Shown piece after piece: positions 26,562 through 60,111 of a DNA stretch of 64,000 nucleotides. This DNA comes from a virus. Its lineage: Duplodnaviria > Caudoviricetes. Under the pieces are notes generated by a model. That model searched no databases. It had not been told where the DNA came from and saw only the letters and a list, made by a program, of their open reading frames with translations. The stretch covers positions 51,910 to 115,909 of IMG/VR virus record IMGVR_UViG_3300033073_000160. The stretch is one strand, 5' to 3'. The position numbers were made by a program, and so were the translations under genes. Within the stretch, counting starts at the first letter, position 1. The number at the start of each line of letters is the position of its first letter.

Positions 26562-29500
26562 TTAACTAGTTCTAGTAGGGGTATACCAAATACCTTCTTC
26601 TGCTTTTAAGAACGAGTTAATATTATCGTTGCTAGCCGCTAACAATCGCTGATCTCGTAAATCAAACGTAGTTGTGCCTGTATCAAAATCAGTAGCAGTT
26701 GTATCTACAATCATTTCTGTTGGGAAATAAGTAATTCCAGACCATAAACGACCTGTTTTCTTTACAACAGTTACTTTTACACCTTCGTCAAGTGCGTTTG
26801 ATAGCTTAATACTGTTAGTAATTCCGTCCACTGTAAAGTCAGCATCGAAGCTAACATCGCCCTCTGGGCTTTCAGGATGGATGCTGACATTGTGAACTTT
26901 GTAATCGTGCTTCTTCAAACGTAGATTTCCAATGAAGAAATTCCATTTGTCAACATCCGCTGAGAACACAGCAGATGAAGTATGCTCTGTTACGCATCTG
27001 TATGCGTAGCTGCCAACTTGCACAATGGTTCCAACGCTGTATAGCACGCCGGATGCCCAGGTTAATGCGGTGTCATATCCGCCAACAAACACTTCAATTT
27101 CGTTTACAGATGTAGGAATAAAAGGAATTTCAATATCTAACGATCCAGTTGAAGCAACTTGCTCTATTTGAGTATCATCTCTATACGGAATAGTTTCGCT
27201 TGGTCCAATATCTTGAACATGGGCACCTGCTGGGTAAACTGGTGCTGCGCCTGTTCCAAGTGTTGCTCTACGTAAACGACTTAAAACATTACCATTCTTT
27301 GCAAAATATTCAATACGTTCGCCTCGAATTTCAACAACACCTGGATAATTTCTAGCAGGGTTAGGTTCTTCGAAGTTAGATGCATCTTCTACTTCAATCT
27401 CTGTATCATAGAAATTTAACGGGTTAACTAAGGCAGATTGTTTCTTTTTACTTAGACGTTTAAAGTGTGTTCTATTCAACATATCTTTGAATTGCATATA
27501 GCTAACAGATGCAGTTGCTATGTTTCTAGAATATGTGATAACATCTATCTTATCATCTAACAACAATGGTTGTTCAAATTTAATGCTTTGTCTATCAGCA
27601 TTTAACTTGTAATCAACACTAGGTGTTAACAGCGTTCCGTTTTTGCTTACCCATACACTTGAATCGTTAAGAACTGCGCGGCCAAGGACAACGTTTCCGC
27701 CAGTTAGCCCAACATAGTTATAATAATTAAACTCATCGGGAGTATAAACAAGCTCAGATTTGATTGTTAGTTGTGTTCGTTGAATGTCAAGAATGTCGTG
27801 CTTATACGCAGTAGTAATTTCAACAATAGAATCTACCGCAGGCGCTGTTACAAACTTAATAGTTGAAGGCGTAGCAGGCACAGTAATAATTTGTGTTGGA
27901 TTCTCTGGGTCAACATAGGTATATCCTGCAGAACCAGGAATAATTGAATACTCTTGTCCTGTAGTAATACAGATGATCAACGTCTTATTCTTGTATGTGT
28001 TGTAGACATTTCTGTTAATCTTGACACTTATTCCTGCTGGATCAATATTATAATCTACGTTTACTTTTAACAATACACCGTCAGCATAAACTGTAATGTC
28101 AGACATATCTGGTTCATACGGTTTTACTTTTGATTGGTCAACAAAATAAGTTAACTTATTCTTATTAATTGTATAGTAGCTTGTATTAGCAGGACGTAAA
28201 ATTGTTTGATCAACTCTAACAATTAAATTAGTTGCCAACGGTAGTGAATTACCAATCGGTGCTGATACTAACAGGTCAGTCGAACTACCAGTTGGGTGCA
28301 ATCTTTCTGTAGTTACTACAGAGAAATTATTATCAATTCCTTCTACGATAACATAGTTAATAACTTGTCCAACAGCGGGTGCTGTTCCAAATCTAATTCC
28401 AACACTATTAACGTTTTCGTATGTGCTATCGGTTCTAAATAGCTCATAAGGTTCTGGATTACCATTAATATATACCAACGAACTAATCGATTCTAACCAA
28501 GGAGACTTTGTAATAAACTCAGTTGTAGTCCCGTTGCCAACAAAGTAGTCAATGTCTAATACATTTGACCCGTTAAATCCAAAATTAAACAATGCAACAA
28601 CTTGACCGGCTGTAGGAACTTCTAAAAGTGTTACAGTTCTATCAGCGTAGTTAACAGTATAATCGTCAACGTTTGTTAAAACAACATTATCAACTTTTAC
28701 TAATACTGCTTCTGCACTATTAATATACTGGCTCATTGCAAATGTATCTAATGCTCCGTCAGCAACATGTGTATCTACGCGAACATTAGCAGCGCCGCTG
28801 CCTGGGCGATAAAAGACTTTAATAGCAACTGCATCTACTACTTGTCCTGGAACAACTTCTTCAACATCTGAGCTAGTTGTTGGGGTAACAAATCCATCAC
28901 CGTCTAATAAAATATCATCTGCTGCTAAACCTGTAGCAGTTTGATATCCAATAAAACCATTGGCATCATAACCTCCACTCAAAGCAGTATCATAGTCAAC
29001 TTCTTGAGGTTTGATAGAACCATCGCTTGTGCTCTTGCGGAAGAATAATTTGTTATATCCAAAAGTTAAATTGGTATCTGCAGGAATTTCAACTGTAATT
29101 GCGTTTGACAATGTTACTAAGTTGGTCACAACATCCACGGCGATTACTGTAGTATTTGTTGGAATTCCTGTTGTTGTGATTCTTGGCAAGTATGAACTTA
29201 CTAAATCGCCAACTGCTACTCCAACTGCGTTGCTAAGAGCAATCTTAGTAGTGCCTTTAACTTGTATACCCGTTGTAAAATTAGTGCCTGTGCCAACAAC
29301 TAACTCCGATGCATTTGGTATTGCAGCTAACAATGCGTTAGAGATTTCCATTATAGGAGTAATAGTCATTGGAATTAATGCTACAGACTGCGGGTCTCCC
29401 GTTAACTGTGCAGTCGAAGTAGTTCCTGCAACACCTTCTCTAGATGAAACACTTGCAGAAAAGTTAATGCCAGAACTAGATGCTTGAGGTATAATTGAAA

Positions 29501-32500
29501 CGTTGCCTGCGGTTACATCGTATGTAACTTTGATAGTAGTATCACCGTCTTCAAACAGGTCAATTTCTAATTCTTCAATAGTCTTAGACGGATTTGCAGT
29601 ATTCCAAGCCGCAATAATATCTAATCGCTGTGAAACGATTTTAATAACAATAGTAGCAGCACTTTGTCCAGCGTAAGTATCTTGAACAAGATAGTCTAAG
29701 AACGTCACTGGTCCAGAAGAAATTCCAGATACTAATATCTTTTGAATTTCTTTTACGCCTGGAATTGCCGCTACAACAGATACAATATAGGTGTCAGTTG
29801 CAACTCCTACACCGCTTACTCGCATACCAACAGCATTTGTAGTGAGACCTGCCGCAGTTAAAGTGTTTCCTGAGATTGTTCCTGTAATGCTTGCCGGAAC
29901 TTTATTTCCAGTAACTGAAGTTACTACAGTTCCATCTGGGATAACATCCGGCGACAACACTAAGCTGCCGACTTGAATGTTCTCAACTGAGCTAAATTCA
30001 ATAGTATTAGAACCGGCTGTAGTAACAGAAGCCGATGCTTGCGTAGTCGATATTGATGGTAGCACAACTGTGCTGTTAATACCGTCGCCAACAAATGTTT
30101 GCATTGTTGCGTTTGCATTTTTTTGCTGCGCAGTTCCAAAATTTGGATCATCAATTCTAACACCGTTGTGGTATACGTTGATAACTACTCCGTATTCTGG
30201 AATATATGGTAGGTCGAACGAATTAGAATTTAATCCTGCTCGAATGATGTAATCATCAAATGTTGGATCAATCTCATCCCAGCGATCTGTAAAGAACGGG
30301 AGACTATCCCAACCACTAGACACACTAAAATCTAATCCCGTAATGATAACCCCACCATAGTCGACTCCCGTCATCAACTGTGCTAAATCTTTACCTAGCT
30401 GGCCTGTTTGAGGATCATAATAGTATTGAATACGATCGGCCGCATTTAACAACGACCAGTCTTTAATATATGATATTTCAATTACTGCATCCTTAGGTGG
30501 AGCGGTATCAAATGTCAATGTTCCGTAGTAAGAAGTGTAACCACGTGATATTGACTTATTAATTGTCAACGTATAATCAGCTCTAATTGTATCAACACCA
30601 TTTACAGTCACTGAGCTCTTTCCGATTCGTAAATCAGGCGCCCACTTCAACACAAATTGTAATTTACTACCAGTGCCCACAAATGATGCGGTTTCTTCTA
30701 GTTCAGTAATAAAGAATGTCTTACTGATTCTATCAAACTTCATCTTAATTAAGTTAGATCTAACAACGCTGTTACCAATAATTGCAACTGCGGTAGCGGG
30801 TGTTCCGCCTTCTTCTAAGCCACCGTCAATCACAATCTTAGGAGCAGTTAAGTATCCAGATCCAGGTGTTAATAAGACTACACGGCTTACTTTTCCGTTA
30901 GTAATAAAGGCCCTAGCTGTTGCTGGAACTACAGATTGGTTATTTGAATTCTGATCAATAATTCTAACTACTGGCTCAGTTACATATCCGCTACCTTGGT
31001 CAACTAATTTTAAACTTGTAATTTCAAAGCCGACATTATCTAACCAATGTTTCCATGGATAGGTTAAGATTGCAGGATCGTTAGCCTGTATGTCTCCGTC
31101 AACGTTATATGTAAACATTGGAGAGTTTACGCCGTCGTTTGATACAGGTAACAAGTCAAAGTCAGTTACAGAAGCCTGAGATGTATCAACTTTAGTATAC
31201 TCACTTACATATTCTCTAATTTGAGTTCTGTATGGTTTAACTTCTGCAACATAAGCTTCAAAGTCTGCAAGATTGTCATTGTTATAAGTAACCTTTTGTT
31301 TTAGTTCACCAACGTTATGCTGAACTCTTACAAAACTAGTCTTAAACGCCCAGTCTAAATATGTCTGTTCTGCAAATGCATATCGTAAGCAAGTAAAGAA
31401 CAAATCTAGATATGTTTGTTTTAAAGTGTCAGTAAAGATCTTATTTTTTAATGTGTTAAGAATAATTCTTAATTCAATAACAGCAGTATTATCGAAAGCG
31501 TCGCCGTCAAACAACGCACCGTCATATCCCAATGTAGTATTTGTAAACTTATAAAGTTCACTACTTAACTGAATAGTTCCGTTTTCTGTTCCTACAACTT
31601 TATAAGATTGTGTCCAGTCAATCGATGTAGAATCTGCATATTTCTGTAACAATTCCCATCCACCGGTCCCATTAGTTCTAACCTTAACGAGCTGACCAAT
31701 TTTAACAGTTATCGAATTTAAGTCACTCAATGTGTTAACAGAATGATCTGCAAGCGTAAATTGATTAATACCGGCGGCATACCAGTCAACGTATGACCAA
31801 TATCTACGTGTATCGTATGCCTGGGATTGTGTGCGAGACCAAACTTTATAATACGGATCGTATGAGTAAATGCTCCAACGATTTAGTGCTTGACTATCGC
31901 TTCTAACAAGTGCAGAATAATTTCTAACTTCAAATTTAGTTGTGCTGTCGTAACCTTGACCAGCACTAATAATTTTTATTCCTGTTATCTGTCCTCTAGT
32001 ATTAATAATTGTTTGTATTTCTGCACCTCGGCCATTGCCTTTAATTTTAATATACGGTGCTGTTAAATACCCGTTGCCTGCATCGACAATATCAACTCCG
32101 ACGATCTCTCCGTCAGATGATACTACAGGATTAATGGTTGGAACTTTGACCGTGCTTACGCTTGCAAATCTTAATTCTGCATCGGTATCAAATGCAACGT
32201 CATACAACGCAGTAATTAAACTTGGAGCAGGATCAAATGAATTTAATGCAGAAATGTCTCTGCTTTCAACAATTTGATTTTCTAACAAACTAGAATTTGC
32301 ACGTTCAACAAACTGTTTTAACGCTTCAAAGCGATTAACAAACATACCTTGACGCGGACGGAATTCTGCACCGTAACGTAACTTAGGTGGTAAGTTAAGG
32401 TCGGGAACTACTTGATTGTTCTGATCTTTTCCGCAAAGACTGTCAAACCATTTTTCTTCAATTGCAGCAGGAAGATTACTGTTAACATCTTCGCTGACCA

Positions 32501-35500
32501 ATCTCCACTGACTATGAACGTTTTGATCTGTTTGATCAATTGTCCAATACTGGACTGCTAAAACAACATCTGCGTCTTGTAATAGAGGCTTAACGTTAAC
32601 TAGGCTAAACGAGTTTGCACTAGTTAACGCAAGATACTTGTATCCCTCTCCTTTCGGATTTGCAATTAAATTTGCTACGTTGTTAGCAGACATATTTCTA
32701 CCTTGAGCATTAGGAATAGTCTTCTTATTCTTTACCCAATAGTAATATGTGTTCTTAAATGATCTACTAATAGTATCATATCGCCTTTTAACACTATAGA
32801 CTGTATCTCCATATAGGCTTGTTCCACTGATGCCTAATGTTAATCCTGCATCAGTATCTGCTTGCTTGTCCCATGCACTTGGTAGTAAATTAGTTTCTAC
32901 CCATTCATAAACATCAATACTAGCTGTTTTAAATAAAGTGTTCCATGTTGTATTTTTATAAACAACATCGCCACCGTAGCTATCAATAAACTTTGCCCTG
33001 CGTAAATCCCACCATAGCATACCAACTTTGTCGCTAGTCCATGCCATGCCATCGTCAACTTTTACGTCATCTCCTGTTCCAATTGAATAAGTTGCAGGGT
33101 CGTAGAATGTTTTAAATTTAATTTCTTGCTCTGCAATTCCTGCAATTTTCCCTTGGATAGGATCAATTATATCAATATAAGTTACTAGATCGTTAGTTGC
33201 TTTATTATACAAGAACGCCTTCTTAATCTTACTAATATCTGGTTTAGCAGTTTCTACATATTTTGCAGACCATGATAATGCACCTCGGGTCTTTTCATAA
33301 TTGTAAACTACACCAGATCTTAAAGATAAATCTACTGCATATGGTGCGCTAACTAAAATGTTATTACGTCCTACTGCAAAACCAGTTCCGTATCCGTCTC
33401 CCATTCTAGGGCTGTCGTTAACTGACAAGGTTTCTGAATAAATCCATTTTGATGCGTAGCGGTCAAAAATATCAACTCGACCGCTGTCAACTGAATACTC
33501 AGTTAACACCATTGTGCCATTATCAAAAATAGTTGCGCCAGAATCAAATTCTGCAAGTTTGTAACTATCACCGTTAGCACTATAAACAACTAGTGTTTCG
33601 TAGTCGTTCATAAAGGCAATCTTTGATCCAAAGAATTCTGCGGTTTCAGGTTTATGACTCTCTACTGTTTGATATAGTGTATATCCGTTTGCGCCAAGCT
33701 CGTATACTAACACACGACCTTGGTCAAGTTTATCACCATCATACAGCGTTGCACCAACTGCAAGATAAGTTGCAGACGATGATAGTGCAAGACTATCACC
33801 AAATTGCTGTGAAGCTAGTGTAGACGTAATTGTCTGTGCTAGCTCGTAATTTCCATCAGTTAAGTTGTAGACAAACACTTTATTGTCTGCAGGGGCTGAA
33901 ATTGAAAGCGTAGTATTGTCAGGATTAACAACTATTGAATCTCCAAATCCTGCGCCTGCAGAAAGTGTAACATCATTAATAGCAGTATCGTATGAATACT
34001 CCCAGCGTGAAATTGTAAATGTTAATTCACCAAATGGTGTAGAATTAGGTGTTTCTGATATTCTTAGTGTAGAACTGTTAACAACTTGTGTTACAGTATG
34101 TGGACTAGTAAATCCAGTGCCAGTTACCGTCATACCTACTTCAATGTTGGCAGTGCTCGATACTTTTAAAGTTGTTCCCGAACTGCCAACTGGTTGATAT
34201 GTTGCAGTTGTTGTAATTGTGTTGTAATCAAGTTGATAAACACAGCCTGTTCCACTGTCATGCCCGGCGGCAGCTACAAACAACTTATTGTTACCAAAGA
34301 CAATATTAGATCCAAATAGTTGATTATTAACTATTGTTGGGCTTGTAATTGTAGCTACAAGATTTGCAATTGAAGAAGCATCTTTCTTATATAAAGACAC
34401 AACCCCGTGGCGAGTAGCACCTGTAGAAATTCCATCCTCAGTAGTTTCAATATACTTAATAGGTTTCCAGTAGGCTGTATTTGTAACAGGTATCTGTGTA
34501 TTTTCAAACAACGCAACATAATGTAATGTAGCTGATTCTACAATATCACCTGGCATGTAAGTATCATTAGTCTGATATTCACCTAACCAACGAGTTGATG
34601 CATTACTTGCTTGAGGAGATCCAAGTGCGATCCATTGCCCGTCTAGGGAGACTGCCACAGTCTCAGCAAAGTATCCCACTTCTTGATCAACTATATCTAC
34701 AGGCTGACAAATAAAAGGAGAAGTAATAGTTTGACGTTGTAGCCAGATTGAGGATCCAGAAGCTTTATCATAAGCAATTACTAAGTTGTTTGTTGTAGAA
34801 ACTACTGCATAACCCCCGTTACCACTTAATGCTAACTGACGGCCGTATCCTAAATCAGTCCCCGGGGTAGGGTTAACAAACTGTCGTGTAGCATACACCG
34901 GTGAATATTCCCACATGCACCATTTACCATTACCGTTATCATCAGTCCATAGTTTTTCACCTGCTTTAATTCTTGCTGGAAGTATTTCGGCAGCAGTATC
35001 AATTGATGTTGCACGTTGAGGTGTTAAGAAAAATAATTGAGCAGTTTCTTGATTTACAAACGGTGCATCAGGCGGTGTTGTTAGCGTAGCCTTAATAGTA
35101 AACGTGTTTAGACTGACAGAATTAACTTTATAAAAGCCCGAAAACTTATCAACTTGAACAATACTTACATATGTTCCAGGTGTTAATGTAACTTGTTGAT
35201 CTGTAGTAATTGTTAATGTGTTTGAAGAATACACAGCATTTACAATTTTATAAGACGTAGAAGTATATCTATAGATGTTCCACTCTCTGCCTTCAAATGC
35301 GCACCAGATATAATCACCGTCATTTAAAGGATTTGGATCTTGTGATAAAATTTCCTCAACATTATCTAATACTAATGATACTTCTTCTTCTCTAACATAT
35401 CCCGGTGTCCTTAGAAAAGGAGTGAAGTTTTCTGACAGTTTCCACGGTTGACTCTTGTATCCAAGAGGTTTTAAATAAAGATCGTTAGGCGTCTGTCTAA

Positions 35501-38500
35501 TAATAAAATCAAATTTATCTTCAGGTAACTGAGTTAACTCAAACCCTTGAGGATTGTTCTTAAACAATGCCTGATCCAAGACAAACTCAATGTCCTCAAA
35601 CGCTGCGCTAGCACCGTATTGGCCAACACGAACTGCCCATTCTTCAAAGAATTTTAAACTCTCTTGGCCTTCTGCACTTAGCACATCAAAGAGCTTATTC
35701 AAGCTGTTTTGAGTCCCTTTCTCAATGATCATTCCTTGATAGAACTTATACTCGCTAACATCGTCTTTAATAATGTTAGACAAGTATTGCCTTGGTTGAT
35801 AACCTGTCAAATGCTGAGCCATAGTCTGTTGGCCGACGTCAAAGTTACCACTATCTAGGCTGTAGAAATCTTCAAATTGTGCTGCCTTATAAGACCAGTT
35901 TGGTAGTAAAGCAGGTTCTGGTTTTTCTTTTAACTTTGTCCACTCCGAAGATATAAACTTGTCTGCACCGACTACTGGAGCATTTGCGCTATAGTAGAAT
36001 TCTTTATACTTAACAATGTCGCCTAGCGCATAATCAGTCCAAGTAGCCCAGTCTTGAATCTTTGCTTGGTCAAATATAAAACCGGCAACATCGAAACTAC
36101 CGTCCCACTGTGTGCTAACATAACTTGACGTTTTAATACGTTCTTGTCTATATCCACTTTCTGGATTATAAATTACATCGTTGAATAATGTTGTATTATC
36201 TAATAACAATACTTGTTCTTTCTGAACTAAGAAGAATGAAGCACCAAAGATACCAGAACCGTCTACAGGTGCATAACTTACATAGTTTCCTGAACGATAT
36301 GAATTTAAAAAGTTTGGTTCAAGTTTTGATCCGTCAACTTTGAAAATTTCGTAACCGTTAAATTGATTCAATATGTCGTCAACAACTGCGTATTCGGTCT
36401 TAATAACAATTTTATTTGCGGCTGGGCTCAACGATATTACTGAGCTTCCGACCGTGCTAAGACCGTCTAGCTTTGTATAATTTCTAAAGTGTGTTACACT
36501 ATTAATTTCTTCAAAGAATTCTGCGGGGGCAACATTTCTTGCAGCCTTGTAATAATCGCCGTTGTATCGAACAATGCTTCCGTAAGTTACAGGAGTGTCA
36601 GGTAACCAGTCGTCCCATTTGTCTTGACCACTTGACCAGTTCTGTGTTGTCCAGAATAAGAATTCTTTTGCGCTAGTTTCCCAGTTGGTAATCTGTGCAA
36701 GTGTAGAATTAAAGTCGTCAAATACAAAACCTTGATCCTTTAACACTTCGCCGTAACCAACTAAGAAGTCAACAACTTCTTGAATAGTTCTAAATTTTGT
36801 TCCGTATGGAACTACTATCGGAGACGAACGATCCCATAGTCTTCTTAGTATTGCATCACGTCCACCGATAATAGGAAGTTTAGCAAGACGTTGGAAGTTT
36901 GCTGTTTCAAATGTTGCCGTTGACACATGGCTAACTGTTACTCTATAAAACGAGTTGCTGTAGGAAACTACAGTTCCAGGAACATATCGCTGGCCAGATG
37001 CCCACACACTATAGCTCTCTGAGATTCCGCCCACATTAATTGTAAACCCAGACTGAATCCATGGATAGTATTCAAAGAAGGGTTTGCTCTTACTGTAGCC
37101 CTTAACTTCATAACCATCCTGAAGTTTAGTAATAATAACTCCGCTGTAGGTTAATTTTTTAACAGGGCTGCTAGAGTTTAAAACAATTTTGTAATTTTCT
37201 TGAGGAACAAATACACCGCCTACTGCTGTTGGATTTTTGCTATCTAATAATAAATTAAATTTTTCTTTACTAGTAAACCCGCCAATACGGTAACTTAGGT
37301 TAAAACGAATGTTGTTAAGATCATATACATATTGATCGTAAGATTTCAAGTTGTCACTTAAAATATAGTCAACAATGTAGTTGATAAGACCTGCGGTTTG
37401 AACTCGAGTATTGCTAGAGTAAATGTTTGGTAAAACTACATCTTCTGCTGTAATTCTTAGACCAGTATCTTTATAGACTAATTGTCCGGTTAAGTTTCTA
37501 ACAACCCTTGAACGGTCTAGCAGTTTACCGATAACGTCAGCAGGCTTTAATAATAGTGCAGTAATTAAAACACTAAACGGATAATAAGAACTTCTTCTCC
37601 ATGCTGCTTCAATAGGACTTACATCACCAAACACAAAGTCCCCTTCGGTTGATGTAGTAATAACACCGCTAGCCATGCTAGAGGTAATAGGGCTCACTAC
37701 ATTGCCGTCTGAGTCAACTGGGATGCAGTTTATCAAGAACGGTCTTGCAAACTTAGCATTTCGAATAATTGGTTTTCCAGGCTCGCGAATTACACCGTCT
37801 GATAAATCTTGCCACATAACTAGATTATCTTTAGTGTATGGAGCAGTTCCATATACGCTTGCCCACCACGTTGGTTCAATACTATAACCTAACATTTCCC
37901 AAGGGCACAAGTTAGGGCGATCAGTATCTAGCATCCAGCGATAAATTCCTCTCCAGTATCCCGGAACTTCTCTACCGTCCGGAGCTTGCTGGCCCCTATA
38001 ATTAAATGTCATGCTATTAGCTCTATCAAAGCTCAGAGGTTTAGAAAAATCTCTATCTATTAAGCTAGTCCACTTATAAAAATTTGGCGCAAGAATTTCA
38101 TTAAATTCTGTTAAAGAATAATCGTTGTCTCGGACATAACTTGGAATAACATCGTGAATGTCAAAGATTGTTGGATCGTATTCAACTTTAATAGTGTTAA
38201 AAATACGTTTTTCTAATTCTAAAATTAGATTATCTCGATAATCTCCATATGCTAGAATTTGACTTCCGTCGTGTCCTTGGATCATTTCTCGAGGAGTAAT
38301 TAAACTTGTATCTAGGTATTTCTTAGGTTCATACTTTGGCCAAATACCTAGCTTAGTTGGTGTTTGTGGAACAAAGCATCCGTCGGTGTTATCGTATTCG
38401 TAAATTGTAATAACATCATCATTTTCTAATGTTGCAATAACGTTAACAAATCCTTGATCACTAAATGTGTAATCAATACCGTATAACAATTGATTAATTG

Positions 38501-41288
38501 ATTCGCCCCTAGTCAAGTAAACGCCCACTGCTTTATTTGACAGGTAATTTACATCATATACTGCTGAAAGCGGATACGTCTTAATTCTATAATCAATAAC
38601 AGGGTATTCATTCTTAATAGCTGATCCATAAGGAATCATGTCGCTAAAATAGTAGGGCGATTTTTTTGGTTTGTCTTTGTTTAATGCTTGTAACACTAAG
38701 TCAACATGTTCTTTAGTGGTTGTCTCAACGCCAAGCGTTAACGCAACTGACATAAAGTTACGTTTAAACTGACCATACTCGTCTCTAGCTTTTTCAATTG
38801 CCCGAATAATGTTATTAGATGGACTTGCAACATGATACATTCCAATAGACATTGGGCCGCTATGTTGAACAAACTTTGTCCCGTATGGTGTTATATTCCC
38901 CATATCGCGAAGATTGTTACTTCCGGGGAATGCGCCAATAAATTTGTTTAACGTATTATCAACAATGCTATTAACGTGATCAATTACTTCACCTAATGTA
39001 AAATCTCCCATTACAGAATTTAATGGATTATTTTGTAAATTAATAGGAACTTCGTAGTAACCGTTGCTGTTAATTGCTTGTTTAGCAAACGCCTTAATTG
39101 TTAATACATCAGATGTTGTGATGTCAGATGCCAAAACAACTTTTTTATAAACTGCACCGCTAACAATAGACCATAATGCGTTGTCAAGTCTGACACCGTT
39201 AATATAGATCCTTACTTCTAAATCATTTAGATTAGATTGATTATCAAATATGTCAATGTCAAAATTATTAACTAGGCCTGAGTTTTTGTAAATTCGTAAT
39301 GCAGGCTGATAGCTAGCATCAACTAAACTAGTCTGCCATCCGTTTTCGTAAGTTACAGTATTGTTACCTGCTGCTTTAACAAAGAAACCTGTGCTAACTT
39401 TTTTCTGTAAGATCTTTTCAACTTCTTTATACTGGAACGTATCAGTTGCTGCGGTAAAATTAAAAACAATGTCGCCAATGTTGTTAATGTTTCTGTATGA
39501 AAGCGGAAATTTTAAATAAGTATCAGCAGTTCCACTACCTTGCTTATATTCAAAGATACTTGTTCCAACAAAAGTTGATCCGTCATATACAGTCTTATCA
39601 CTAAAGCTGATACCATTATCATCTACTACATCAAACAACGGGCTTTGATTTAAACTTGTTTTATTCTGAGCAACATTCCAGGTAGTCCCGTCATACCAAC
39701 GCATAGTTCCCTGTGCAGTATCCCCTTGACGAACTACTACGACTTGATTCAATACGGGTTCTGATTCAAGAACCAAATGTATTTGTCTGCTTCTAGTTTG
39801 TTTAATGCTGTCTTGAACGTCAATAAATTGAACACGATAAATTTTATTTTTAACTAGAGTATCATTATCTGCGGTAAACAAAACTTTGTGTCCGTTAACT
39901 AGCGGAATACCGTCCACATTATAGCCGATAGAGCCCTCAATTGTAGAAAATACATCAGTAGTAAACGTATCGATTAAATCTACATCTGTCCCTGCTTCTA
40001 AACCAAAATTAAATAATTTTAAATTTGCTGCAAATTCAATGATAGGCCTAACCGCTCTTGTTGTTTGATCAAGGCTTGGAATATTTCCGTTGTATTTTGC
40101 ACTAGCTTCAATAACATCTTTATGGAACCATTTGTTATATCTGCTCCATGGGTTTCTGTCACGACTTGCACGATTAATAACAATATAATCAACTTGACCA
40201 GAATATGCAGTTGCGTTACTAAATGGGAACTCATCAAACTTAGTATCATCAAATAAGATTGATATTTCTTCGGAATACGAAGTAACTAATTCTAACGATG
40301 CTTCTGGAATTAAAACAATCTTAGATCCAACTCCGTCAACGTAAAATTGTCCTGTAGCATATTCAGTAGGAAGAACGTTACCTCCAAACTGAATCTTCAT
40401 ACCGTTGCTTAACGCTGTTCCGTTAGGCAACGTGTATGTCTTTTTGCCAATTAATTCAGATTCAACATTGATTTCTGTATTATCTTTAATATCTAATACA
40501 TGAAAAACTCCACCAAGATCAATGTTGTTTTCGCTAACATAAAATAATACATCTGGACAATTTTCAGGAACTGTAAAAGTTACAGAACCTTTCTGCACAG
40601 CATGATTATCAACTGCTAATCCTGGACTATAGCGATTATCTGTTCCTGTAGATCTAACAGTTTTAATGCTAAATGGCTCGCCCGGAGTGTCAATATCAAA
40701 GTGATATGTTTGTCCTCTATACAAACGTAAAGTAGGGTTGCGGGTTAGTCCATTAGGAGTAAACAGATACTGCTTATCGTCAAGTTCAGATTCGATCGTA
40801 ACAGAGTATGTGCTTGAAATTGCACGTTGTTGACCGTATATTGTAATAACATCTGGACCATATGGTAGCCAATAATATTGTTGGAAATTTACAAACTTAT
40901 CCCAGTCAATATGAGGATCCCAAGAATAAAATTCTTGCTTATTCAATCGGCTGTGGTTCTTTACGTTTGCGCCGAACGTTTCTAGTTGATTAATATAATC
41001 TTGATAATCTTTAAAGAACTCAGTATTTCCTAACGTATCTTCAATAGTAATACTCGGCTCTAATTGATAGTTTGTTCTATTTGCCGTAGGCGCAGATACA
41101 AAAATGTCATTACCTGTTGTGGCTTTAGCGTTCTTTCTACCGATATAACCGTTAATCTTTTTAACTGTTCCGGGTTTAACTAATTGCTCAATTGTGGCCT
41201 GCAAGAACTTCTTGTTAGCATCGGACCTATAAAATCTAGGAAGAAAGTTAGAGATGCCGTCGTCGTTTGGATTGATATTATCAGCCAT
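26562..41288 (-). CDS. giant (4908 aa) baseplate wedge / structural protein (gp7-position)
   Basis: Uninterrupted 14.7-kb ORF directly after the gp6-like gene. Contains G-x-GY-x-x-x-P repeats, beta-propeller-like repeats and CBM-like modules. Confidence 0.8.
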   Translation of the reverse strand: MADNINPNDDGISNFLPRFYRSDANKKFLQATIEQLVKPGTVKKINGYIGRKNAKATTGNDIFVSAPTANRTNYQLEPSITIEDTLGNTEFFKDYQDYINQLETFGANVKNHSRLNKQEFYSWDPHIDWDKFVNFQQYYWLPYGPDVITIYGQQRAISSTYSVTIESELDDKQYLFTPNGLTRNPTLRLYRGQTYHFDIDTPGEPFSIKTVRSTGTDNRYSPGLAVDNHAVQKGSVTFTVPENCPDVLFYVSENNIDLGGVFHVLDIKDNTEINVESELIGKKTYTLPNGTALSNGMKIQFGGNVLPTEYATGQFYVDGVGSKIVLIPEASLELVTSYSEEISILFDDTKFDEFPFSNATAYSGQVDYIVINRASRDRNPWSRYNKWFHKDVIEASAKYNGNIPSLDQTTRAVRPIIEFAANLKLFNFGLEAGTDVDLIDTFTTDVFSTIEGSIGYNVDGIPLVNGHKVLFTADNDTLVKNKIYRVQFIDVQDSIKQTRSRQIHLVLESEPVLNQVVVVRQGDTAQGTMRWYDGTTWNVAQNKTSLNQSPLFDVVDDNGISFSDKTVYDGSTFVGTSIFEYKQGSGTADTYLKFPLSYRNINNIGDIVFNFTAATDTFQYKEVEKILQKKVSTGFFVKAAGNNTVTYENGWQTSLVDASYQPALRIYKNSGLVNNFDIDIFDNQSNLNDLEVRIYINGVRLDNALWSIVSGAVYKKVVLASDITTSDVLTIKAFAKQAINSNGYYEVPINLQNNPLNSVMGDFTLGEVIDHVNSIVDNTLNKFIGAFPGSNNLRDMGNITPYGTKFVQHSGPMSIGMYHVASPSNNIIRAIEKARDEYGQFKRNFMSVALTLGVETTTKEHVDLVLQALNKDKPKKSPYYFSDMIPYGSAIKNEYPVIDYRIKTYPLSAVYDVNYLSNKAVGVYLTRGESINQLLYGIDYTFSDQGFVNVIATLENDDVITIYEYDNTDGCFVPQTPTKLGIWPKYEPKKYLDTSLITPREMIQGHDGSQILAYGDYRDNLILELEKRIFNTIKVEYDPTIFDIHDVIPSYVRDNDYSLTEFNEILAPNFYKWTSLIDRDFSKPLSFDRANSMTFNYRGQQAPDGREVPGYWRGIYRWMLDTDRPNLCPWEMLGYSIEPTWWASVYGTAPYTKDNLVMWQDLSDGVIREPGKPIIRNAKFARPFLINCIPVDSDGNVVSPITSSMASGVITTSTEGDFVFGDVSPIEAAWRRSSYYPFSVLITALLLKPADVIGKLLDRSRVVRNLTGQLVYKDTGLRITAEDVVLPNIYSSNTRVQTAGLINYIVDYILSDNLKSYDQYVYDLNNIRFNLSYRIGGFTSKEKFNLLLDSKNPTAVGGVFVPQENYKIVLNSSSPVKKLTYSGVIITKLQDGYEVKGYSKSKPFFEYYPWIQSGFTINVGGISESYSVWASGQRYVPGTVVSYSNSFYRVTVSHVSTATFETANFQRLAKLPIIGGRDAILRRLWDRSSPIVVPYGTKFRTIQEVVDFLVGYGEVLKDQGFVFDDFNSTLAQITNWETSAKEFLFWTTQNWSSGQDKWDDWLPDTPVTYGSIVRYNGDYYKAARNVAPAEFFEEINSVTHFRNYTKLDGLSTVGSSVISLSPAANKIVIKTEYAVVDDILNQFNGYEIFKVDGSKLEPNFLNSYRSGNYVSYAPVDGSGIFGASFFLVQKEQVLLLDNTTLFNDVIYNPESGYRQERIKTSSYVSTQWDGSFDVAGFIFDQAKIQDWATWTDYALGDIVKYKEFYYSANAPVVGADKFISSEWTKLKEKPEPALLPNWSYKAAQFEDFYSLDSGNFDVGQQTMAQHLTGYQPRQYLSNIIKDDVSEYKFYQGMIIEKGTQNSLNKLFDVLSAEGQESLKFFEEWAVRVGQYGASAAFEDIEFVLDQALFKNNPQGFELTQLPEDKFDFIIRQTPNDLYLKPLGYKSQPWKLSENFTPFLRTPGYVREEEVSLVLDNVEEILSQDPNPLNDGDYIWCAFEGREWNIYRYTSTSYKIVNAVYSSNTLTITTDQQVTLTPGTYVSIVQVDKFSGFYKVNSVSLNTFTIKATLTTPPDAPFVNQETAQLFFLTPQRATSIDTAAEILPARIKAGEKLWTDDNGNGKWCMWEYSPVYATRQFVNPTPGTDLGYGRQLALSGNGGYAVVSTTNNLVIAYDKASGSSIWLQRQTITSPFICQPVDIVDQEVGYFAETVAVSLDGQWIALGSPQASNASTRWLGEYQTNDTYMPGDIVESATLHYVALFENTQIPVTNTAYWKPIKYIETTEDGISTGATRHGVVSLYKKDASSIANLVATITSPTIVNNQLFGSNIVFGNNKLFVAAAGHDSGTGCVYQLDYNTITTTATYQPVGSSGTTLKVSSTANIEVGMTVTGTGFTSPHTVTQVVNSSTLRISETPNSTPFGELTFTISRWEYSYDTAINDVTLSAGAGFGDSIVVNPDNTTLSISAPADNKVFVYNLTDGNYELAQTITSTLASQQFGDSLALSSSATYLAVGATLYDGDKLDQGRVLVYELGANGYTLYQTVESHKPETAEFFGSKIAFMNDYETLVVYSANGDSYKLAEFDSGATIFDNGTMVLTEYSVDSGRVDIFDRYASKWIYSETLSVNDSPRMGDGYGTGFAVGRNNILVSAPYAVDLSLRSGVVYNYEKTRGALSWSAKYVETAKPDISKIKKAFLYNKATNDLVTYIDIIDPIQGKIAGIAEQEIKFKTFYDPATYSIGTGDDVKVDDGMAWTSDKVGMLWWDLRRAKFIDSYGGDVVYKNTTWNTLFKTASIDVYEWVETNLLPSAWDKQADTDAGLTLGISGTSLYGDTVYSVKRRYDTISRSFKNTYYYWVKNKKTIPNAQGRNMSANNVANLIANPKGEGYKYLALTSANSFSLVNVKPLLQDADVVLAVQYWTIDQTDQNVHSQWRLVSEDVNSNLPAAIEEKWFDSLCGKDQNNQVVPDLNLPPKLRYGAEFRPRQGMFVNRFEALKQFVERANSSLLENQIVESRDISALNSFDPAPSLITALYDVAFDTDAELRFASVSTVKVPTINPVVSSDGEIVGVDIVDAGNGYLTAPYIKIKGNGRGAEIQTIINTRGQITGIKIISAGQGYDSTTKFEVRNYSALVRSDSQALNRWSIYSYDPYYKVWSRTQSQAYDTRRYWSYVDWYAAGINQFTLADHSVNTLSDLNSITVKIGQLVKVRTNGTGGWELLQKYADSTSIDWTQSYKVVGTENGTIQLSSELYKFTNTTLGYDGALFDGDAFDNTAVIELRIILNTLKNKIFTDTLKQTYLDLFFTCLRYAFAEQTYLDWAFKTSFVRVQHNVGELKQKVTYNNDNLADFEAYVAEVKPYRTQIREYVSEYTKVDTSQASVTDFDLLPVSNDGVNSPMFTYNVDGDIQANDPAILTYPWKHWLDNVGFEITSLKLVDQGSGYVTEPVVRIIDQNSNNQSVVPATARAFITNGKVSRVVLLTPGSGYLTAPKIVIDGGLEEGGTPATAVAIIGNSVVRSNLIKMKFDRISKTFFITELEETASFVGTGSKLQFVLKWAPDLRIGKSSVTVNGVDTIRADYTLTINKSISRGYTSYYGTLTFDTAPPKDAVIEISYIKDWSLLNAADRIQYYYDPQTGQLGKDLAQLMTGVDYGGVIITGLDFSVSSGWDSLPFFTDRWDEIDPTFDDYIIRAGLNSNSFDLPYIPEYGVVINVYHNGVRIDDPNFGTAQQKNANATMQTFVGDGINSTVVLPSISTTQASASVTTAGSNTIEFSSVENIQVGSLVLSPDVIPDGTVVTSVTGNKVPASITGTISGNTLTAAGLTTNAVGMRVSGVGVATDTYIVSVVAAIPGVKEIQKILVSGISSGPVTFLDYLVQDTYAGQSAATIVIKIVSQRLDIIAAWNTANPSKTIEELEIDLFEDGDTTIKVTYDVTAGNVSIIPQASSSGINFSASVSSREGVAGTTSTAQLTGDPQSVALIPMTITPIMEISNALLAAIPNASELVVGTGTNFTTGIQVKGTTKIALSNAVGVAVGDLVSSYLPRITTTGIPTNTTVIAVDVVTNLVTLSNAITVEIPADTNLTFGYNKLFFRKSTSDGSIKPQEVDYDTALSGGYDANGFIGYQTATGLAADDILLDGDGFVTPTTSSDVEEVVPGQVVDAVAIKVFYRPGSGAANVRVDTHVADGALDTFAMSQYINSAEAVLVKVDNVVLTNVDDYTVNYADRTVTLLEVPTAGQVVALFNFGFNGSNVLDIDYFVGNGTTTEFITKSPWLESISSLVYINGNPEPYELFRTDSTYENVNSVGIRFGTAPAVGQVINYVIVEGIDNNFSVVTTERLHPTGSSTDLLVSAPIGNSLPLATNLIVRVDQTILRPANTSYYTINKNKLTYFVDQSKVKPYEPDMSDITVYADGVLLKVNVDYNIDPAGISVKINRNVYNTYKNKTLIICITTGQEYSIIPGSAGYTYVDPENPTQIITVPATPSTIKFVTAPAVDSIVEITTAYKHDILDIQRTQLTIKSELVYTPDEFNYYNYVGLTGGNVVLGRAVLNDSSVWVSKNGTLLTPSVDYKLNADRQSIKFEQPLLLDDKIDVITYSRNIATASVSYMQFKDMLNRTHFKRLSKKKQSALVNPLNFYDTEIEVEDASNFEEPNPARNYPGVVEIRGERIEYFAKNGNVLSRLRRATLGTGAAPVYPAGAHVQDIGPSETIPYRDDTQIEQVASTGSLDIEIPFIPTSVNEIEVFVGGYDTALTWASGVLYSVGTIVQVGSYAYRCVTEHTSSAVFSADVDKWNFFIGNLRLKKHDYKVHNVSIHPESPEGDVSFDADFTVDGITNSIKLSNALDEGVKVTVVKKTGRLWSGITYFPTEMIVDTTATDFDTGTTTFDLRDQRLLAASNDNINSFLKAEEGIWYTPTRTS

Positions 41289-56251: not shown

Positions 56252-56587
56252 ATGCCAAGAAACGTAATTGTTAAATTTGATAAAGGTGAACCGCACACTT
56301 ATAAGAAAGTGCCGGATAGTGTTTCTATTGATGAAGTAAAAAAGAAAGCAGCTCAAGAGTTTCCAGATAGAAAAGTTGTTGGAGTTACTGAGCAACCTTA
56401 TATCCTTGCCCCAAATCCTGCTCCTGGAGGAAAAGAAAAGCCTTCAGTTGACATAGATAAGAGCTCAGATGCACCGGGAAAGTCTGAACCTCAGGACGAT
56501 CGAAAGGACTACAGAGCCGACTTTCCAAATCTGTATACGCCACCGGGATTTATTCGTAACAAGCGCGGCGATTTAATTTACTATTAA
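56252..56587 (+). CDS. hypothetical protein
   Basis: Follows 55174..56247 after a 4-nt gap. Confidence 0.65.
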   Translation: MPRNVIVKFDKGEPHTYKKVPDSVSIDEVKKKAAQEFPDRKVVGVTEQPYILAPNPAPGGKEKPSVDIDKSSDAPGKSEPQDDRKDYRADFPNLYTPPGFIRNKRGDLIYY

Positions 56588-56817
56588 ATCAGCGGCATAC
56601 GTGCTTCGATAGTAGTTTTAATATTATCGTTAATAATACTGTTAATCATAGCGCGGTCTTCATGAGAATATGTATGAAGCAAGTCTTCCATCTGGACTCC
56701 GCCGCGCATATACCAACTAATTTTAAACAGTTCGTGTTTAAATTCTTTTGATTCCGCTTCAAGCCTGATTAGATATTCTGAAATTTCTTCGTCAGACGAC
56801 TTAATCAGGCGTTGTCG
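56584..56817 (-). CDS. 77-codon -1-frame extension of gp26-like gene (gp51-position); not in ORF track
   Basis: Open frame RQRLIKSSDEEISEYLIRLEAESKEFKHELFKISWYMRGG...RMPLI* beginning at the slippery site 56817-56823. Confidence 0.7.
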   Translation of the reverse strand, partial: RQRLIKSSDEEISEYLIRLEAESKEFKHELFKISWYMRGGVQMEDLLHTYSHEDRAMINSIINDNIKTTIEARMPLI

Positions 56818-57632
56818 AAAAAACTTGCTTGATCCAATTCTACTCTTAAAAGATTTTCAGATTCACATTCTTCGCACTTAACTGGCATTGCAGGTGTTTT
56901 CCAAGTTTCATTATTGCGATCGATAACTTTCTTAATAGCATCAAACGTAGACTTATCTGCATTATCTAGCCATTCAATAATATAAACTCGTTCGCTTACT
57001 GAGCTACCAGGAATATCTATTGAATCAATACCTGCTGCAAAGATTTCGTTTCTTAACACACCTAACTGCTTATACAAATCTGCAATAACTTGCTGTCTTT
57101 CAAGTTCGTCTTCTATGGAACCAGATTGTTGCAATGTCTTTTGCATGGCATAATTCTTTAATGCAAAGTCGCTAACTTGTTTATAATTTAAAGGTTGTAA
57201 TTTGACTATTAGGTCGTTAACAACAACCTTACTTTCATATTCGCAACGACTAAAATGATCAATAATCTGTGCTAGTTCAATATCATACGAATTTTCATGT
57301 CCGCAATTTGGACAAGTATGAATAACACCCATGGTGTTACCAAACGTTGCAATACGGATTGCAGCTAATACTAAATCAGTATCTAAGTTTGATAATTGCC
57401 ATGCATCCTTAATAGACGGACAGCAACTTTCAATTACCTTAACAACACTATCTCCAGTGAGTAACGCATCTGGAGTCTTCATAATAATTTCATCCATGCC
57501 TGTCATGCCATAAACTGGCAAATTGCTCACATCACCTTGAATAACTCCGGGTGTGTTATAAACACCTTTTGAAGGTAAGCTGATGAAGATTTTTGGTTGT
57601 CTAAAATACTTCTGTAGCGGGTTTTGTGCCAT
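56805..57632 (-). CDS. gp26: baseplate hub assembly / tail assembly chaperone (gp26-like)
   Basis: LPSKG, MTGMDEI, LAAIRIAT, CPNC and CEEC zinc motifs, C-terminal ...SFF. Confidence 0.8.
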   Translation of the reverse strand: MAQNPLQKYFRQPKIFISLPSKGVYNTPGVIQGDVSNLPVYGMTGMDEIIMKTPDALLTGDSVVKVIESCCPSIKDAWQLSNLDTDLVLAAIRIATFGNTMGVIHTCPNCGHENSYDIELAQIIDHFSRCEYESKVVVNDLIVKLQPLNYKQVSDFALKNYAMQKTLQQSGSIEDELERQQVIADLYKQLGVLRNEIFAAGIDSIDIPGSSVSERVYIIEWLDNADKSTFDAIKKVIDRNNETWKTPAMPVKCEECESENLLRVELDQASFFDNA

Positions 57633-57696: not shown

Positions 57697-60111
57697 ATGG
57701 GCGATCCGATCACCAAAGCAGAGATGGAAGAGCTGTTGCGCAACCAAGCTCGCGAATTTGCAGGTTTGTTAAAAGGCAACAACTTTTCAGGATCTTCGTC
57801 TACACCCACTCCATCGCCATCGAGCAGTAGCAGCGGCAGCGGCATTGGCGGATTAATAGCTGATACAGCATCGGGCTCGATAAAGTTACTAGGTTCAACT
57901 GCTGAAGAAACTGTAAAAGCAGTTGCAGCATTAGGAACAGGATCTTATGGCGCTAGAGATGCGTTAACTAGTTTTACCAATGTTGTTAGTAAGGTAGCAC
58001 CCGACTTTGGCGGAATAATGGGAAAGATGGGCGGCGCTGTCCTCGATGCCAACGACAGATTAAGAGAAAGTGGTAAAGTTGGCGTTGATTTTGCAGGCGA
58101 TCTAGGAAGAGCAAATAAAGCAGTTGTAGACTCTGGTGCAAGTCAACAGCAGTTTGCAGACGAGATGCGTAAGAACGCAACGCAATATTCAGGCGCTGGC
58201 GTTACAATGAATAAAGCTATTGAGAACGTCTTAGGATTCTCAAGAGATCTACAAGAAACTCCGGCAATTGAAATGATGAAAAAAGCCGGCACTACTCAGA
58301 ACGAAGTTGCTGAGTTAGCGATGATCTCAATGAAAGAGCGTCGTGGTATTGACCTAAATGACAAAGAAGCTAGACAGCAAATGTTGGAAAACACTATTGC
58401 GTTGTCAGGCGAAATGAACGAAGTTGCTCGACTAACGGGAGTAAGCCGTCAGGAGCAAATGGCTAAACTAGCCAAAGACAAAGAAAACGTAATGGTTCAA
58501 GCTGAACTAATGGGCATGGATAAGGATGCTACTAACCGTTACGACATGCTAAAAACTAAACTAGGACCATTGGGCGATAGTGTTAGCAAACTTGCAGATG
58601 AAATTTTCACCGGAGGTATTAGAACCAAAGAAGGTGCCGACCGTATGGCAGCACTAGGACCTGCAGGTAAAGCATTTGAACAAGCGGTGTTAATGCAAAA
58701 GAATGCAACTACACAAGCACAAAAAGATGCTGCTGCGGCTGCAATGGAGAAAGCCAAAGCGGATATTGCAGCATACCAACAGACTGAACAATTCCGAAGT
58801 CAAATTAAGCTAGATAGAAGCTCAGTTGGCGATGAAGCTCGAAAGCAAATGGCCGAAAACAGAGAGCTAAAAGGTCGTATGACTGCTGAAGCAACAGCAA
58901 CTAGTGCAGCAAAAGCAGAAGGTAAGCCAGCCGCAACTCCTGAGGAAATTCAGCAGGCTCGCATTAATCAGGTAAGACAGGACACAGCTAGAGTTGGACC
59001 AGACGGTAAACCATTAGCGGGCTCTGCAATTAGTAGTGCAGTAAATCAATTTGATCAACGATTATTCCAAGAAAGTAAGGTAGCAGCTGACTTATTTCAT
59101 CAGTTAAACACCGAAGTTGGCGGATATATTCGAGATAGCAAGAAACTACAAGATCAATTAAATCCTAGAGTAAAGGTGGGCGGCGAAAATGTTAGACGTG
59201 AAGCTACTAAAGACGGCACAGCACTTGGGGCAATTGAAAACACAGTTAGAGATACAATCAGAGACGAGATTCAAAATCTTCCAGAACCTCAAACCGGGCA
59301 ATCTGCACCAGGAGTAAGCTCAACAAGAAGGAGTCGAACAACTCCTCAGTCAAACCAACAAGAAACTCCACAAACTGAAGAAGCACGCCCTGTTACTTCA
59401 ACTAGAAGGCGTCCCGCAGAAGCTAGGGCAGACGGCGGCCCTGTGGAACCAGGTGTGCCTTATTGGGTAGGTGAAGAAGGTCCTGAGCTAGTAAAATTTG
59501 ACACTAAGTCAACAGTAGTGCCAACTGATCAAGTTCCTACAGCTGGAAAAGAAAGTGCGATACCTTCAATACCAGATTTTGGCAGCATGTTTGCAGATAC
59601 TATGCCCGACCTAAGTGCATTAAAAGATAAAATGCCTGATATGTCTACTATGTTTGCAGACATGGTTCCTGATTTGAGCACATTAAAGGAAAAAATGCCC
59701 GACATGTCTACTATGTTCGGGGATATGGTTCCTGACACAGAACTTATTAAAAAATCATTACCCGACTTTGATTCACTAATGGGCGATATGTCTGCTAGCA
59801 TTGCCGACAGCTCAACCGCGGCAATAGATAATGTTAAGCTAGATGCAATTTCTAAAGTTGATGCAGCCAAAAAAGAAACTACATTTGATGAATTCGGATC
59901 AGAAGTAGAAAAGAAACCTGCACCTGAGCCTACTCCAACGCCACCGGCACCACTAGTTGCCGAAGGTGCTACTCTATCTGACATCAAAGAACAGTTAGTT
60001 GAGTTAAATACAGCAGTATTACAATTAATAGCACACTCTGCCCAAACTGCTGAAAATTCAGGTGCCGCAGTAAAAGCTACTAAAGATCTAAGCGGGAACC
60101 TATATACATAA
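57697..60111 (+). CDS. tape-measure-like protein
   Basis: Ala-rich helical body; RADGGPV...YWVGEEGPEL motif typical of tape-measure C-terminal regions; adjacent to the chaperone gene. Confidence 0.7.
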   Translation: MGDPITKAEMEELLRNQAREFAGLLKGNNFSGSSSTPTPSPSSSSSGSGIGGLIADTASGSIKLLGSTAEETVKAVAALGTGSYGARDALTSFTNVVSKVAPDFGGIMGKMGGAVLDANDRLRESGKVGVDFAGDLGRANKAVVDSGASQQQFADEMRKNATQYSGAGVTMNKAIENVLGFSRDLQETPAIEMMKKAGTTQNEVAELAMISMKERRGIDLNDKEARQQMLENTIALSGEMNEVARLTGVSRQEQMAKLAKDKENVMVQAELMGMDKDATNRYDMLKTKLGPLGDSVSKLADEIFTGGIRTKEGADRMAALGPAGKAFEQAVLMQKNATTQAQKDAAAAAMEKAKADIAAYQQTEQFRSQIKLDRSSVGDEARKQMAENRELKGRMTAEATATSAAKAEGKPAATPEEIQQARINQVRQDTARVGPDGKPLAGSAISSAVNQFDQRLFQESKVAADLFHQLNTEVGGYIRDSKKLQDQLNPRVKVGGENVRREATKDGTALGAIENTVRDTIRDEIQNLPEPQTGQSAPGVSSTRRSRTTPQSNQQETPQTEEARPVTSTRRRPAEARADGGPVEPGVPYWVGEEGPELVKFDTKSTVVPTDQVPTAGKESAIPSIPDFGSMFADTMPDLSALKDKMPDMSTMFADMVPDLSTLKEKMPDMSTMFGDMVPDTELIKKSLPDFDSLMGDMSASIADSSTAAIDNVKLDAISKVDAAKKETTFDEFGSEVEKKPAPEPTPTPPAPLVAEGATLSDIKEQLVELNTAVLQLIAHSAQTAENSGAAVKATKDLSGNLYT
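59569..59790 (+). repeat. 3.5 copies of a 63-nt (21-aa, 11+10) tandem repeat
   Basis: IPDFGSMFADT/MPDLSALKDK/MPDMSTMFADM/VPDLSTLKEK/MPDMSTMFGDM/VPDTELIKKS/LPDFDSLMGDM. Confidence 0.85.

Follow-up and report, generated by a model that had tools for sequence, protein, structure and literature searches.

In their review of the T4 tail, Leiman et al. (2010, PMC3004832) class gp26 and gp51 of bacteriophage T4 among the hub assembly chaperones and state that the particle lacks gp51. T4 gp26 (208 residues) consists of the PF12322 domain alone and T4 gp51 (249 residues) of the same domain followed by a C-terminal helical domain; the two are encoded by separate, divergently transcribed genes without recoding, and gene 26 also yields an internal-start product, 26'. 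The tail assembly chaperone genes of long-tailed phages have a conserved −1 frameshift, as in lambda gpG/gpGT, according to a passage of PMC5009743 that cites Levin et al. (1993) and Xu et al. (2004). In dnaX of Escherichia coli, a −1 slip on a heptamer followed by a hairpin gives two nested products, tau and gamma, from one gene. Here we describe a hub-assembly gene of the gp26/gp51 family on the minus strand of a 64,000-nucleotide stretch of DNA from an uncultured giant T4-related phage (the window; positions 51,910 to 115,909 of IMG/VR record IMGVR_UViG_3300033073_000160, a 116-kb virus contig with a completeness estimate of 31%). We put at about 85% the probability that this gene contains a conserved programmed −1 frameshift, by which it would encode proteins of 275 and 349 amino acids.

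The elements concerned are as follows, with the evidence for each in brackets.

57632..56805, minus strand: 0-frame open reading frame of 275 amino acids, a PF12322 hub-assembly protein and the predicted short product (Pfam, PHROG)
56823-56817, minus strand: slippery heptamer T TTT TTC in X XXY YYZ phase (invariant in frameshift-type homologues)
56811..56816, minus strand: spacer of 6 nucleotides, GACAAC, between heptamer and hairpin
56763..56810, minus strand: predicted stimulatory hairpin (folding energy, covariation)
56584..56817, minus strand: −1-frame extension, 77 codons and TAA (conservation, codon periodicity, natural fusions)
56584..56709, minus strand: 41-codon ATG open reading frame (MRGG...) reported by gene callers, a fragment of the extension and no separate gene

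Most ribosomes would stop at the TGA that ends the 0 frame and release the 275-residue form. A fraction of them, with tRNA-Phe in the P site (UUU) and in the A site (UUC), would move one base backwards on U UUU UUC, where a hairpin starting 6 nucleotides further on would pause the ribosome. These ribosomes would then read CGA (Arg) and 76 more codons of the −1 frame, adding a helical C-terminal domain to reach 349 residues, and one gene would thus supply two nested proteins at a fixed ratio. The short product has the architecture of gp26 and the long product that of gp51, and the junction of the latter (..DVF-K-LL-VNPDEI..) resembles that of the trans-frame protein (..SFF-RQR-LI-KSSDEEI..). 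The T4 genes and the gene in the window are alike, too, in lying in a baseplate and tail gene neighbourhood. In T4 the equivalent pair would come from two paralogues, gene 26 with the domain by itself and gene 51 with the C-terminal domain added, and in three other lineages from an in-frame long gene accompanied by a short tandem paralogue.

The predicted slip site and downstream hairpin

The hub reading frame ends AGT TTT TTC GAC AAC GCC TGA (minus strand), the first T of the heptamer being the third position of a codon and the TGA (56807-56805) following three codons on. The −1 frame is closed upstream by a stop at 56859-56857, 13 codons before the slip, and runs for 77 codons from the re-read C at 56817 to the TAA at 56586-56584, where its end overlaps by 4 nucleotides the stop of the convergent plus-strand open reading frame 56252..56587. 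Its first ATG, and the only canonical start there, is codon 37 (56709), the start of MRGG. The predicted products are of 275 and 272 + 77 = 349 amino acids, with a junction in which ...LDQASFF is followed by RQRLIK; VELDQASFFR is the diagnostic tryptic peptide predicted for the trans-frame protein, and the junction predicted for RaK2 is ...FFR followed by SQLLQLEATEIEK. An earlier note on this DNA, made from the letters alone, had described the gene end, the position and phase of the heptamer, the two product sizes, the closure of the −1 frame 13 codons upstream, its 77 open codons to 56584 and its first ATG at codon 37, and all of its coordinates are confirmed. It had also made the retention of the heptamer in homologues, the conservation of the codons before MRGG and the exclusion of an assembly indel the points on which the reading would turn; each is borne out by the comparisons below.

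Homologous loci were gathered in three sets: 80 IMG/VR loci retrieved with the hub protein; nine GenBank phages; and 80 further IMG/VR loci together with 80 metagenome loci, retrieved with fused relatives. The phased heptamer is present in 64/64 distinct junctions in a first count, in 66/66 in a second and in 65/65 frameshift-type metagenome loci. Overall, T TTT TT[C/T] occurs in every different-frame homologue examined, comprising more than 100 distinct junctions and extending to 24% protein identity; its carriers include RaK2, 121Q, CBB, PA5oct, XacN1, Atu_ph07, Phosso, SCTP-2 and RsoM2USA. XacN1 has the variant T TTT TTT (T7) and RsoM2USA a run of T9, nearly all other homologues having T6. 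The codon before the heptamer may be AGT, AAT, ACT, CAT, GAT, CGT, GCT or GTT (S, N, T, H, D, R, A, V) and always ends in T despite the varying residue. T4 gp26 also terminates in Phe-Phe but encodes it as TTC TTT, which is not slippery, and has no extension, gene 25 following directly; the T run is therefore not forced by the amino acids alone. Judged from these sequences, the recurrence of the heptamer is well above chance expectation. The site belongs to the U_UU.Y class, which ranks second among A-site motif classes in E. coli for proneness to slip (PMC4066793).

Many homologues (L101, L104, L129 and most of L188-L264) have two overlapping heptamers in tandem, A AAT TTT and T TTT TTC. Such tandems arise where Asn precedes Phe-Phe and the codon before Asn ends in A; the window (GCA AGT TTT TTC) has the second heptamer only.

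The predicted hairpin pairs a 5' arm, GCCUGAUUA (56810-56802), with a 3' arm, UAAUCAGGC (56771-56763), so that the helix begins 6 nucleotides past the heptamer, within the 5-9 nucleotides at which a downstream structure is looked for at frameshift sites, and the 0-frame TGA lies inside the 5' arm. In the window, its folding free energy is −19 kcal/mol (z −2.96). The helix is common to the close clade, with the compensatory pairs GCCUAAUU/AAUUAGGC, GCCUGAUCGAGU/AUUUGAUCGGGC and GCCUAACUAG/CUAGUUAGGC. In the ungapped alignment A1, 73% of the cells are paired, compared with 63% in shuffles and 22-48% with slid partners, and the covariation score of 0.339, against 0.189, was reached by none of 500 shuffles. 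Across the 64 junctions, the segment +10..+85 has a mean minimum free energy z of −2.44, with 67% of the values below −2; four control segments gave mean z values of −0.2 to −0.7, with 5-14% below −2.

Distant lineages, such as Atu_ph07, XacN1, PA5oct and L037, have other hairpins at the same place. The lineages use hairpins differing in sequence and register. RNAalifold found no consensus structure for all 56 ungapped sequences; structure was assessed by folding each sequence separately and by counting pairs in the named structure.

Coding in the −1 frame and natural fusions

Across homologues the 0-frame stop lies 1 to 15 codons past the heptamer and may be TAA, TGA or TAG; since its position and type vary, the 0-frame tail shows no conservation. 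The open stretch of the −1 frame is nearly constant in length, at 71-82 codons in homologues, and the +1 frame closes at once. Conservation of the extension sets in with its first −1 codon (R-x-[RS]-L-[IL]-x-x-x-x-x-E-I...L-x-R-L...F-K-x-E-x-x-R-I-S-W-Y-M-R-G-G), that is, from the slip site and not from MRGG, and within it the W-x-M-R-G motif is invariant. Variability peaks at third codon positions: those of the 0 frame ahead of the heptamer and, from the 0-frame stop to MRGG, those of the −1 frame (0.33/0.18/0.42). Conservation and codon periodicity both pass to the −1 frame exactly at the heptamer. By this pattern both frames are under purifying selection.

These data bear on whether the extension might instead be a separate protein of about 75 residues, made by termination-reinitiation or translational coupling from an ATG or a non-canonical start. 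An ATG overlaps or adjoins the stop (ATGA) in Atu_ph07, Phosso, 121Q and a few others, and the genes of Phosso and 121Q are annotated in this way. Between the stop that closes the −1 frame upstream and codon +15, however, 52 of the 64 junctions have no ATG in that frame and 44 have neither ATG, GTG nor TTG; at the place of the ATG of Atu_ph07 and Phosso, the window reads CTG ATT. With start codons missing from most junctions, a separately initiated small gene is untenable as a general explanation. Moreover, the conserved stretch starts with the Arg whose codon shares bases with the heptamer, before the 0 frame has reached its stop, and two genes would leave the invariant heptamer, the hairpin and the residue-colinear fusions described below unexplained. 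We consider this alternative very unlikely.

A search of 1.84 billion representative proteins with the extension profile gave 326 matches. Most are fragments produced by gene callers, of 41 residues (from MRGG), 58-76 residues or 89-98 residues; the 41-residue 'hypothetical proteins' cover profile positions 37-77 only. Among the best 150 matches, 22 are in-frame fusions of 319-351 residues that belong to PF12322 and end in the extension. Across the junction they read ..L-D-x-S-x-x-F-R-x-K-L-I.., colinear at each residue with the predicted ..L-D-Q-A-S-F-F-R-Q-R-L-I... The fusion is seen in the DNA of six IMG/VR and two metagenome loci, with junctions such as CAA TTT AGA and ACT TTC CGA. An AlphaFold2 model of one fusion has a predicted local distance difference test (pLDDT) score of 89 and a predicted template modelling score of 0.83, with the extension forming four confident helices. 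In a maximum-likelihood tree of the N-terminal domain, fused genes occupy three separate places: a deep clade, a 20-member clade that is sister to that of the window, and a single position nested in a frameshift clade (97% support in the Shimodaira-Hasegawa-like approximate likelihood ratio test). The tree requires at least 2-3 changes between the fused and the frameshift state.

That homopolymers are error-prone in some sequencing chemistries, and that in-frame versions of the gene exist, might suggest that the frame break is an indel of assembly or sequencing, or that the gene has decayed to a pseudogene. However, independent assemblies from many projects, more than 100 in number and with nine finished isolate genomes among them, have the break at the same base. 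The fused junctions have diverged sequences that lack the T6 run and so are not homopolymer errors, and the selection apparent on both frames does not fit decay. An artefact or a pseudogene is scarcely credible.

T4 gp51 has about 48 residues beyond PF12322, which are named Gp51_C (PF28602) in Pfam 38.1. The profile of this C-terminus matches the extension sequences weakly but in constant register, aligning gp51 Y..imnMiP.ER.iaLslvEKd with sY.ea..lS..ER.ii..iIkeNiE of the extension, and hhalign gives a broad extension alignment a probability of 63% against the gp51 C-terminus (E 7e-5, 35 columns). One of the protein-atlas neighbours of the extension, which we treat as a lead only, is a cluster of 44-residue proteins, 55% of whose members carry PF28602 (score 0.91, 167 shared features). 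In precomputed annotations, PF28602 is assigned to none of the best 120 of 1,152 extension-like proteins. Narrow extension alignments gave no match to T4 gp51, gp28 or gp26 in pairwise or profile comparisons, and the extension exceeds the gp51 C-terminal domain by about 25 residues. The architectural likeness of the long product to gp51 is independent of whether the two C-terminal domains are homologous.

The proposed ribosomal frameshift and its link to gp26 and gp51 have also to be set against several points that count against them. Homology between the extension and the gp51 C-terminal domain, of which it would be the counterpart, is probable from these comparisons, with moderate support. 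The occurrence of the slip and its efficiency, in this phage and in its homologues, we infer from sequence. The fusions show that a constitutive long form is feasible, and they do not prove a tuned ratio of short to long. A second paralogue may lie elsewhere in this phage, the record representing about 31% of the genome. Finally, RNA polymerase slippage on the T6 run could give the same protein: an extra U would be copied, and the resulting U7 mRNAs would be translated normally.

Polymerase slippage agrees with the site being a homopolymer run (T6, with T7 in XacN1 and T9 in RsoM2USA) and with a one-base insertion giving exactly ...FFR..., colinear with the natural fusions. Efficient slippage by bacterial polymerases usually takes runs of 8-9 bases. 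The run here has been kept at six in more than 100 lineages without lengthening, and the covarying structure stands at the spacing of 5-7 nucleotides typical of ribosomal stimulators. The heptamer is, in addition, always in X XXY YYZ phase, although conservation of the Phe-Phe and Arg codons could be enough by itself to impose this. We therefore regard polymerase slippage as improbable and hold to the ribosomal −1 frameshift.

The hub protein family and its known counterparts

The hub protein matches Pfam PF12322 (T4_baseplate) with 57.3 bits against a cut-off of 24.5 (E 2e-15), residues 60-272 aligning with profile positions 42-218 of 219, and it matches PHROG 150 'baseplate hub' as well. It contains two CxxC pairs (C107/C110 and C253/C256), the cysteines of which are invariant in alignment A3, and its AlphaFold2 model has a pLDDT of 88.7. 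By tblastn, its GenBank relatives are RaK2-like giant myophages only (RaK2, K64-1, 121Q, PBECO4, GAP32, CBB, PA5oct, XacN1, Atu_ph07, Phosso, SCTP-2 and RsoM2USA), and a megablast search with the locus turned up no near-identical DNA in the phage collection. Solved structures offered no sequence match to the hub protein or the extension, and the extension matched nothing in Pfam or PHROGs. Foldseek against the PDB returned no match at E <= 0.001, and VIA-align searches covering all PDB representatives turned up only helical-hairpin matches of a generic kind (Z <= 7.1 and Z <= 6.0 for two models). A natural-fusion homologue does match predicted gp26/gp51-type structures in BFVD (E 2e-14).

Some of the BFVD matches are longer proteins, such as J7KJQ2 (686 residues) and A0A514TUY8 (544 residues), that resemble the gp26/gp51-type domain in predicted structure, which suggests further fusion partners for this fold. 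A subfamily of PF12322 is without both CxxC pairs (VPNTKL, for example, replacing the first) and ends in ..AGAPExWxAExxFMGSxF. Its members are the upstream short paralogue in L090, L093-L095 and L128 and the frameshifting gene in L239; since the subfamily serves in both settings, zinc binding is dispensable for the family.

PF12322 matches T4 gp26 over its whole length (E 9e-64) and residues 1-201 of T4 gp51 (E 4e-52), which makes the two T4 proteins paralogues. T4 thus has two PF12322 genes, and the complete genomes of RaK2, Atu_ph07 and PA5oct have one each, a count that holds when a profile of the divergent paralogues is used. A short, extension-less tandem paralogue accompanies the fused gene in 7/7 fused loci with flanking sequence, representing three independent clades:

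L090, L093-L095, L091/L092 and L185: fused loci with a short tandem paralogue

Among frameshift loci, such a paralogue is present in 2/97 (2/74 from IMG/VR and 0/23 of the metagenome loci with enough flank). The association of gene number with frameshifting is suggestive, three independent events and T4 falling short of statistical proof. On the simplest reading, both a short and a long form would be required by these phages, with slippage as one route to the pair and duplication as the other. The earlier note's proposal of a gp26/gp51-type pair made by frameshifting fits these facts: both T4 proteins belong to PF12322, gp51 has the additional C-terminal domain, and the lineages without a frameshift have two genes.

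The two frameshift-type loci with an extra short paralogue directly upstream, L115 and L128, could be intermediates between the one-gene and two-gene layouts.

We lean slightly towards a broader proposal, in which hub assembly in T4-type tails would need a bare (gp26-like) form and a form with a C-terminal adaptor (gp51-like) of one chaperone fold, and evolution would have switched repeatedly between a −1 frameshift that sets their ratio and two paralogues. The frameshift would then be the hub counterpart of lambda G/GT, which would explain why T4, alone among long-tailed phages, seemed to be without a recoded chaperone of this kind.

The locus resembles lambda G/GT in that a tail-assembly gene would yield a short and a C-terminally extended form through a −1 slip placed a few codons ahead of its stop, and in that the arrangement, but not the sequence, is kept across very diverged phages. 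The products here are, as in lambda, probably not virion components: CBB_250, the CBB homologue, is missing from the table of CBB virion proteins identified by mass spectrometry, in which its neighbour CBB_251 has 29 peptides, and the RaK2 and PA5oct records mark only the large neighbour, not the hub homologue, as a virion protein. Unlike the lambda gene, that in the window is not placed between tube and tape-measure genes, nor upstream of the latter in the same orientation, but is divergent from a weakly tape-measure-like open reading frame; by homology to T4 it would act on the baseplate hub; it has a strong downstream hairpin; and some lineages swap the frameshift for gene duplication. The hub protein has no match to a chaperone family in Pfam or PHROG. 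The HK97 chaperone 2ob9_B ranked 38th in VIA-align (Z 5.8, root-mean-square deviation 6.3 Å over 88 residues) and fell outside the top 50 for the second model; as a weak match that did not recur, it is not relied on here.

Of the lambda-like arrangement proposed in the earlier note, the production of short and extended forms by a −1 slip stands; no similarity to the chaperones, in sequence or in a reproducible fold, was found. The comparison is best drawn as one of logic, a non-structural assembly factor in two nested forms, membership of the chaperone family being unsupported.

E. coli dnaX shares with this locus the single gene with two nested products, the −1 slip on a heptamer with a downstream hairpin, and the existence of other lineages that manage without a frameshift. 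It differs in that the slip there gives the shorter product, here the longer, and in its unrelated family and process.

Surroundings, annotation and wider meaning

The surroundings are a T4-type core, with gp5-, gp25-, gp46/47-, portal- and prohead-protease-like genes. Three further features of the window are as follows.

57697..60111, plus strand: divergent open reading frame of 804 amino acids, followed by a gp20-type portal gene; possible tape measure or virion protein
26562-41288, minus strand: single open reading frame of 4908 codons in the baseplate/fibre region
54249-54674, plus strand: segE-type GIY-YIG homing endonuclease gene (Pfam PF19835, E 1.5e-32)

The adjacency of the hub gene to a tape-measure gene, to which the earlier note had pointed, is upheld as far as the divergent neighbour is concerned. 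Its tape-measure identity depends on a weak match to PHROG 5062 (E 7e-4) that covers 42 residues only; the 804-residue protein had no tblastn match in the phage collection and showed nothing in comparison with T4 gp29. Large genes at the same position encode virion proteins in RaK2, PA5oct and CBB. The segE-type gene, which lies between the gp46-like SbcC gene and a gap of about 500 bp free of open reading frames, may be mobile DNA inserted into the conserved gp47/gp46 block.

The earlier note had expected standard annotation to miss the frameshifting pair; 0/9 GenBank records examined mark a slippage join. The nine records either omit the extension or call an orphan open reading frame of 41-76 residues, and the 1,152 extension-like open reading frames found by profile search are mostly labelled 'hypothetical'. 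We found no published report of this frameshift in the open-access literature, subscription-only papers lying outside the search, and the papers on PA5oct, Atu_ph07 and CBB do not mention it. To our knowledge, no case of recoding was known before in this gene family.

The predicted frameshift extends over the RaK2-like or 'T4-core' jumbo phages, a whole group of giant phages of wide occurrence, together with thousands of environmental relatives, and adds to the gp26/gp51 gene family a well-supported case of −1 frameshifting with a putative stimulatory hairpin. The same pair of proteins would be made in three ways, by frameshifting, from tandem paralogues and from the divergent genes of T4. Cultured phages exist in which short-only and long-only alleles can be compared, and the system offers an evolutionary handle on the roles of gp26 and gp51 and on why there are two of them.

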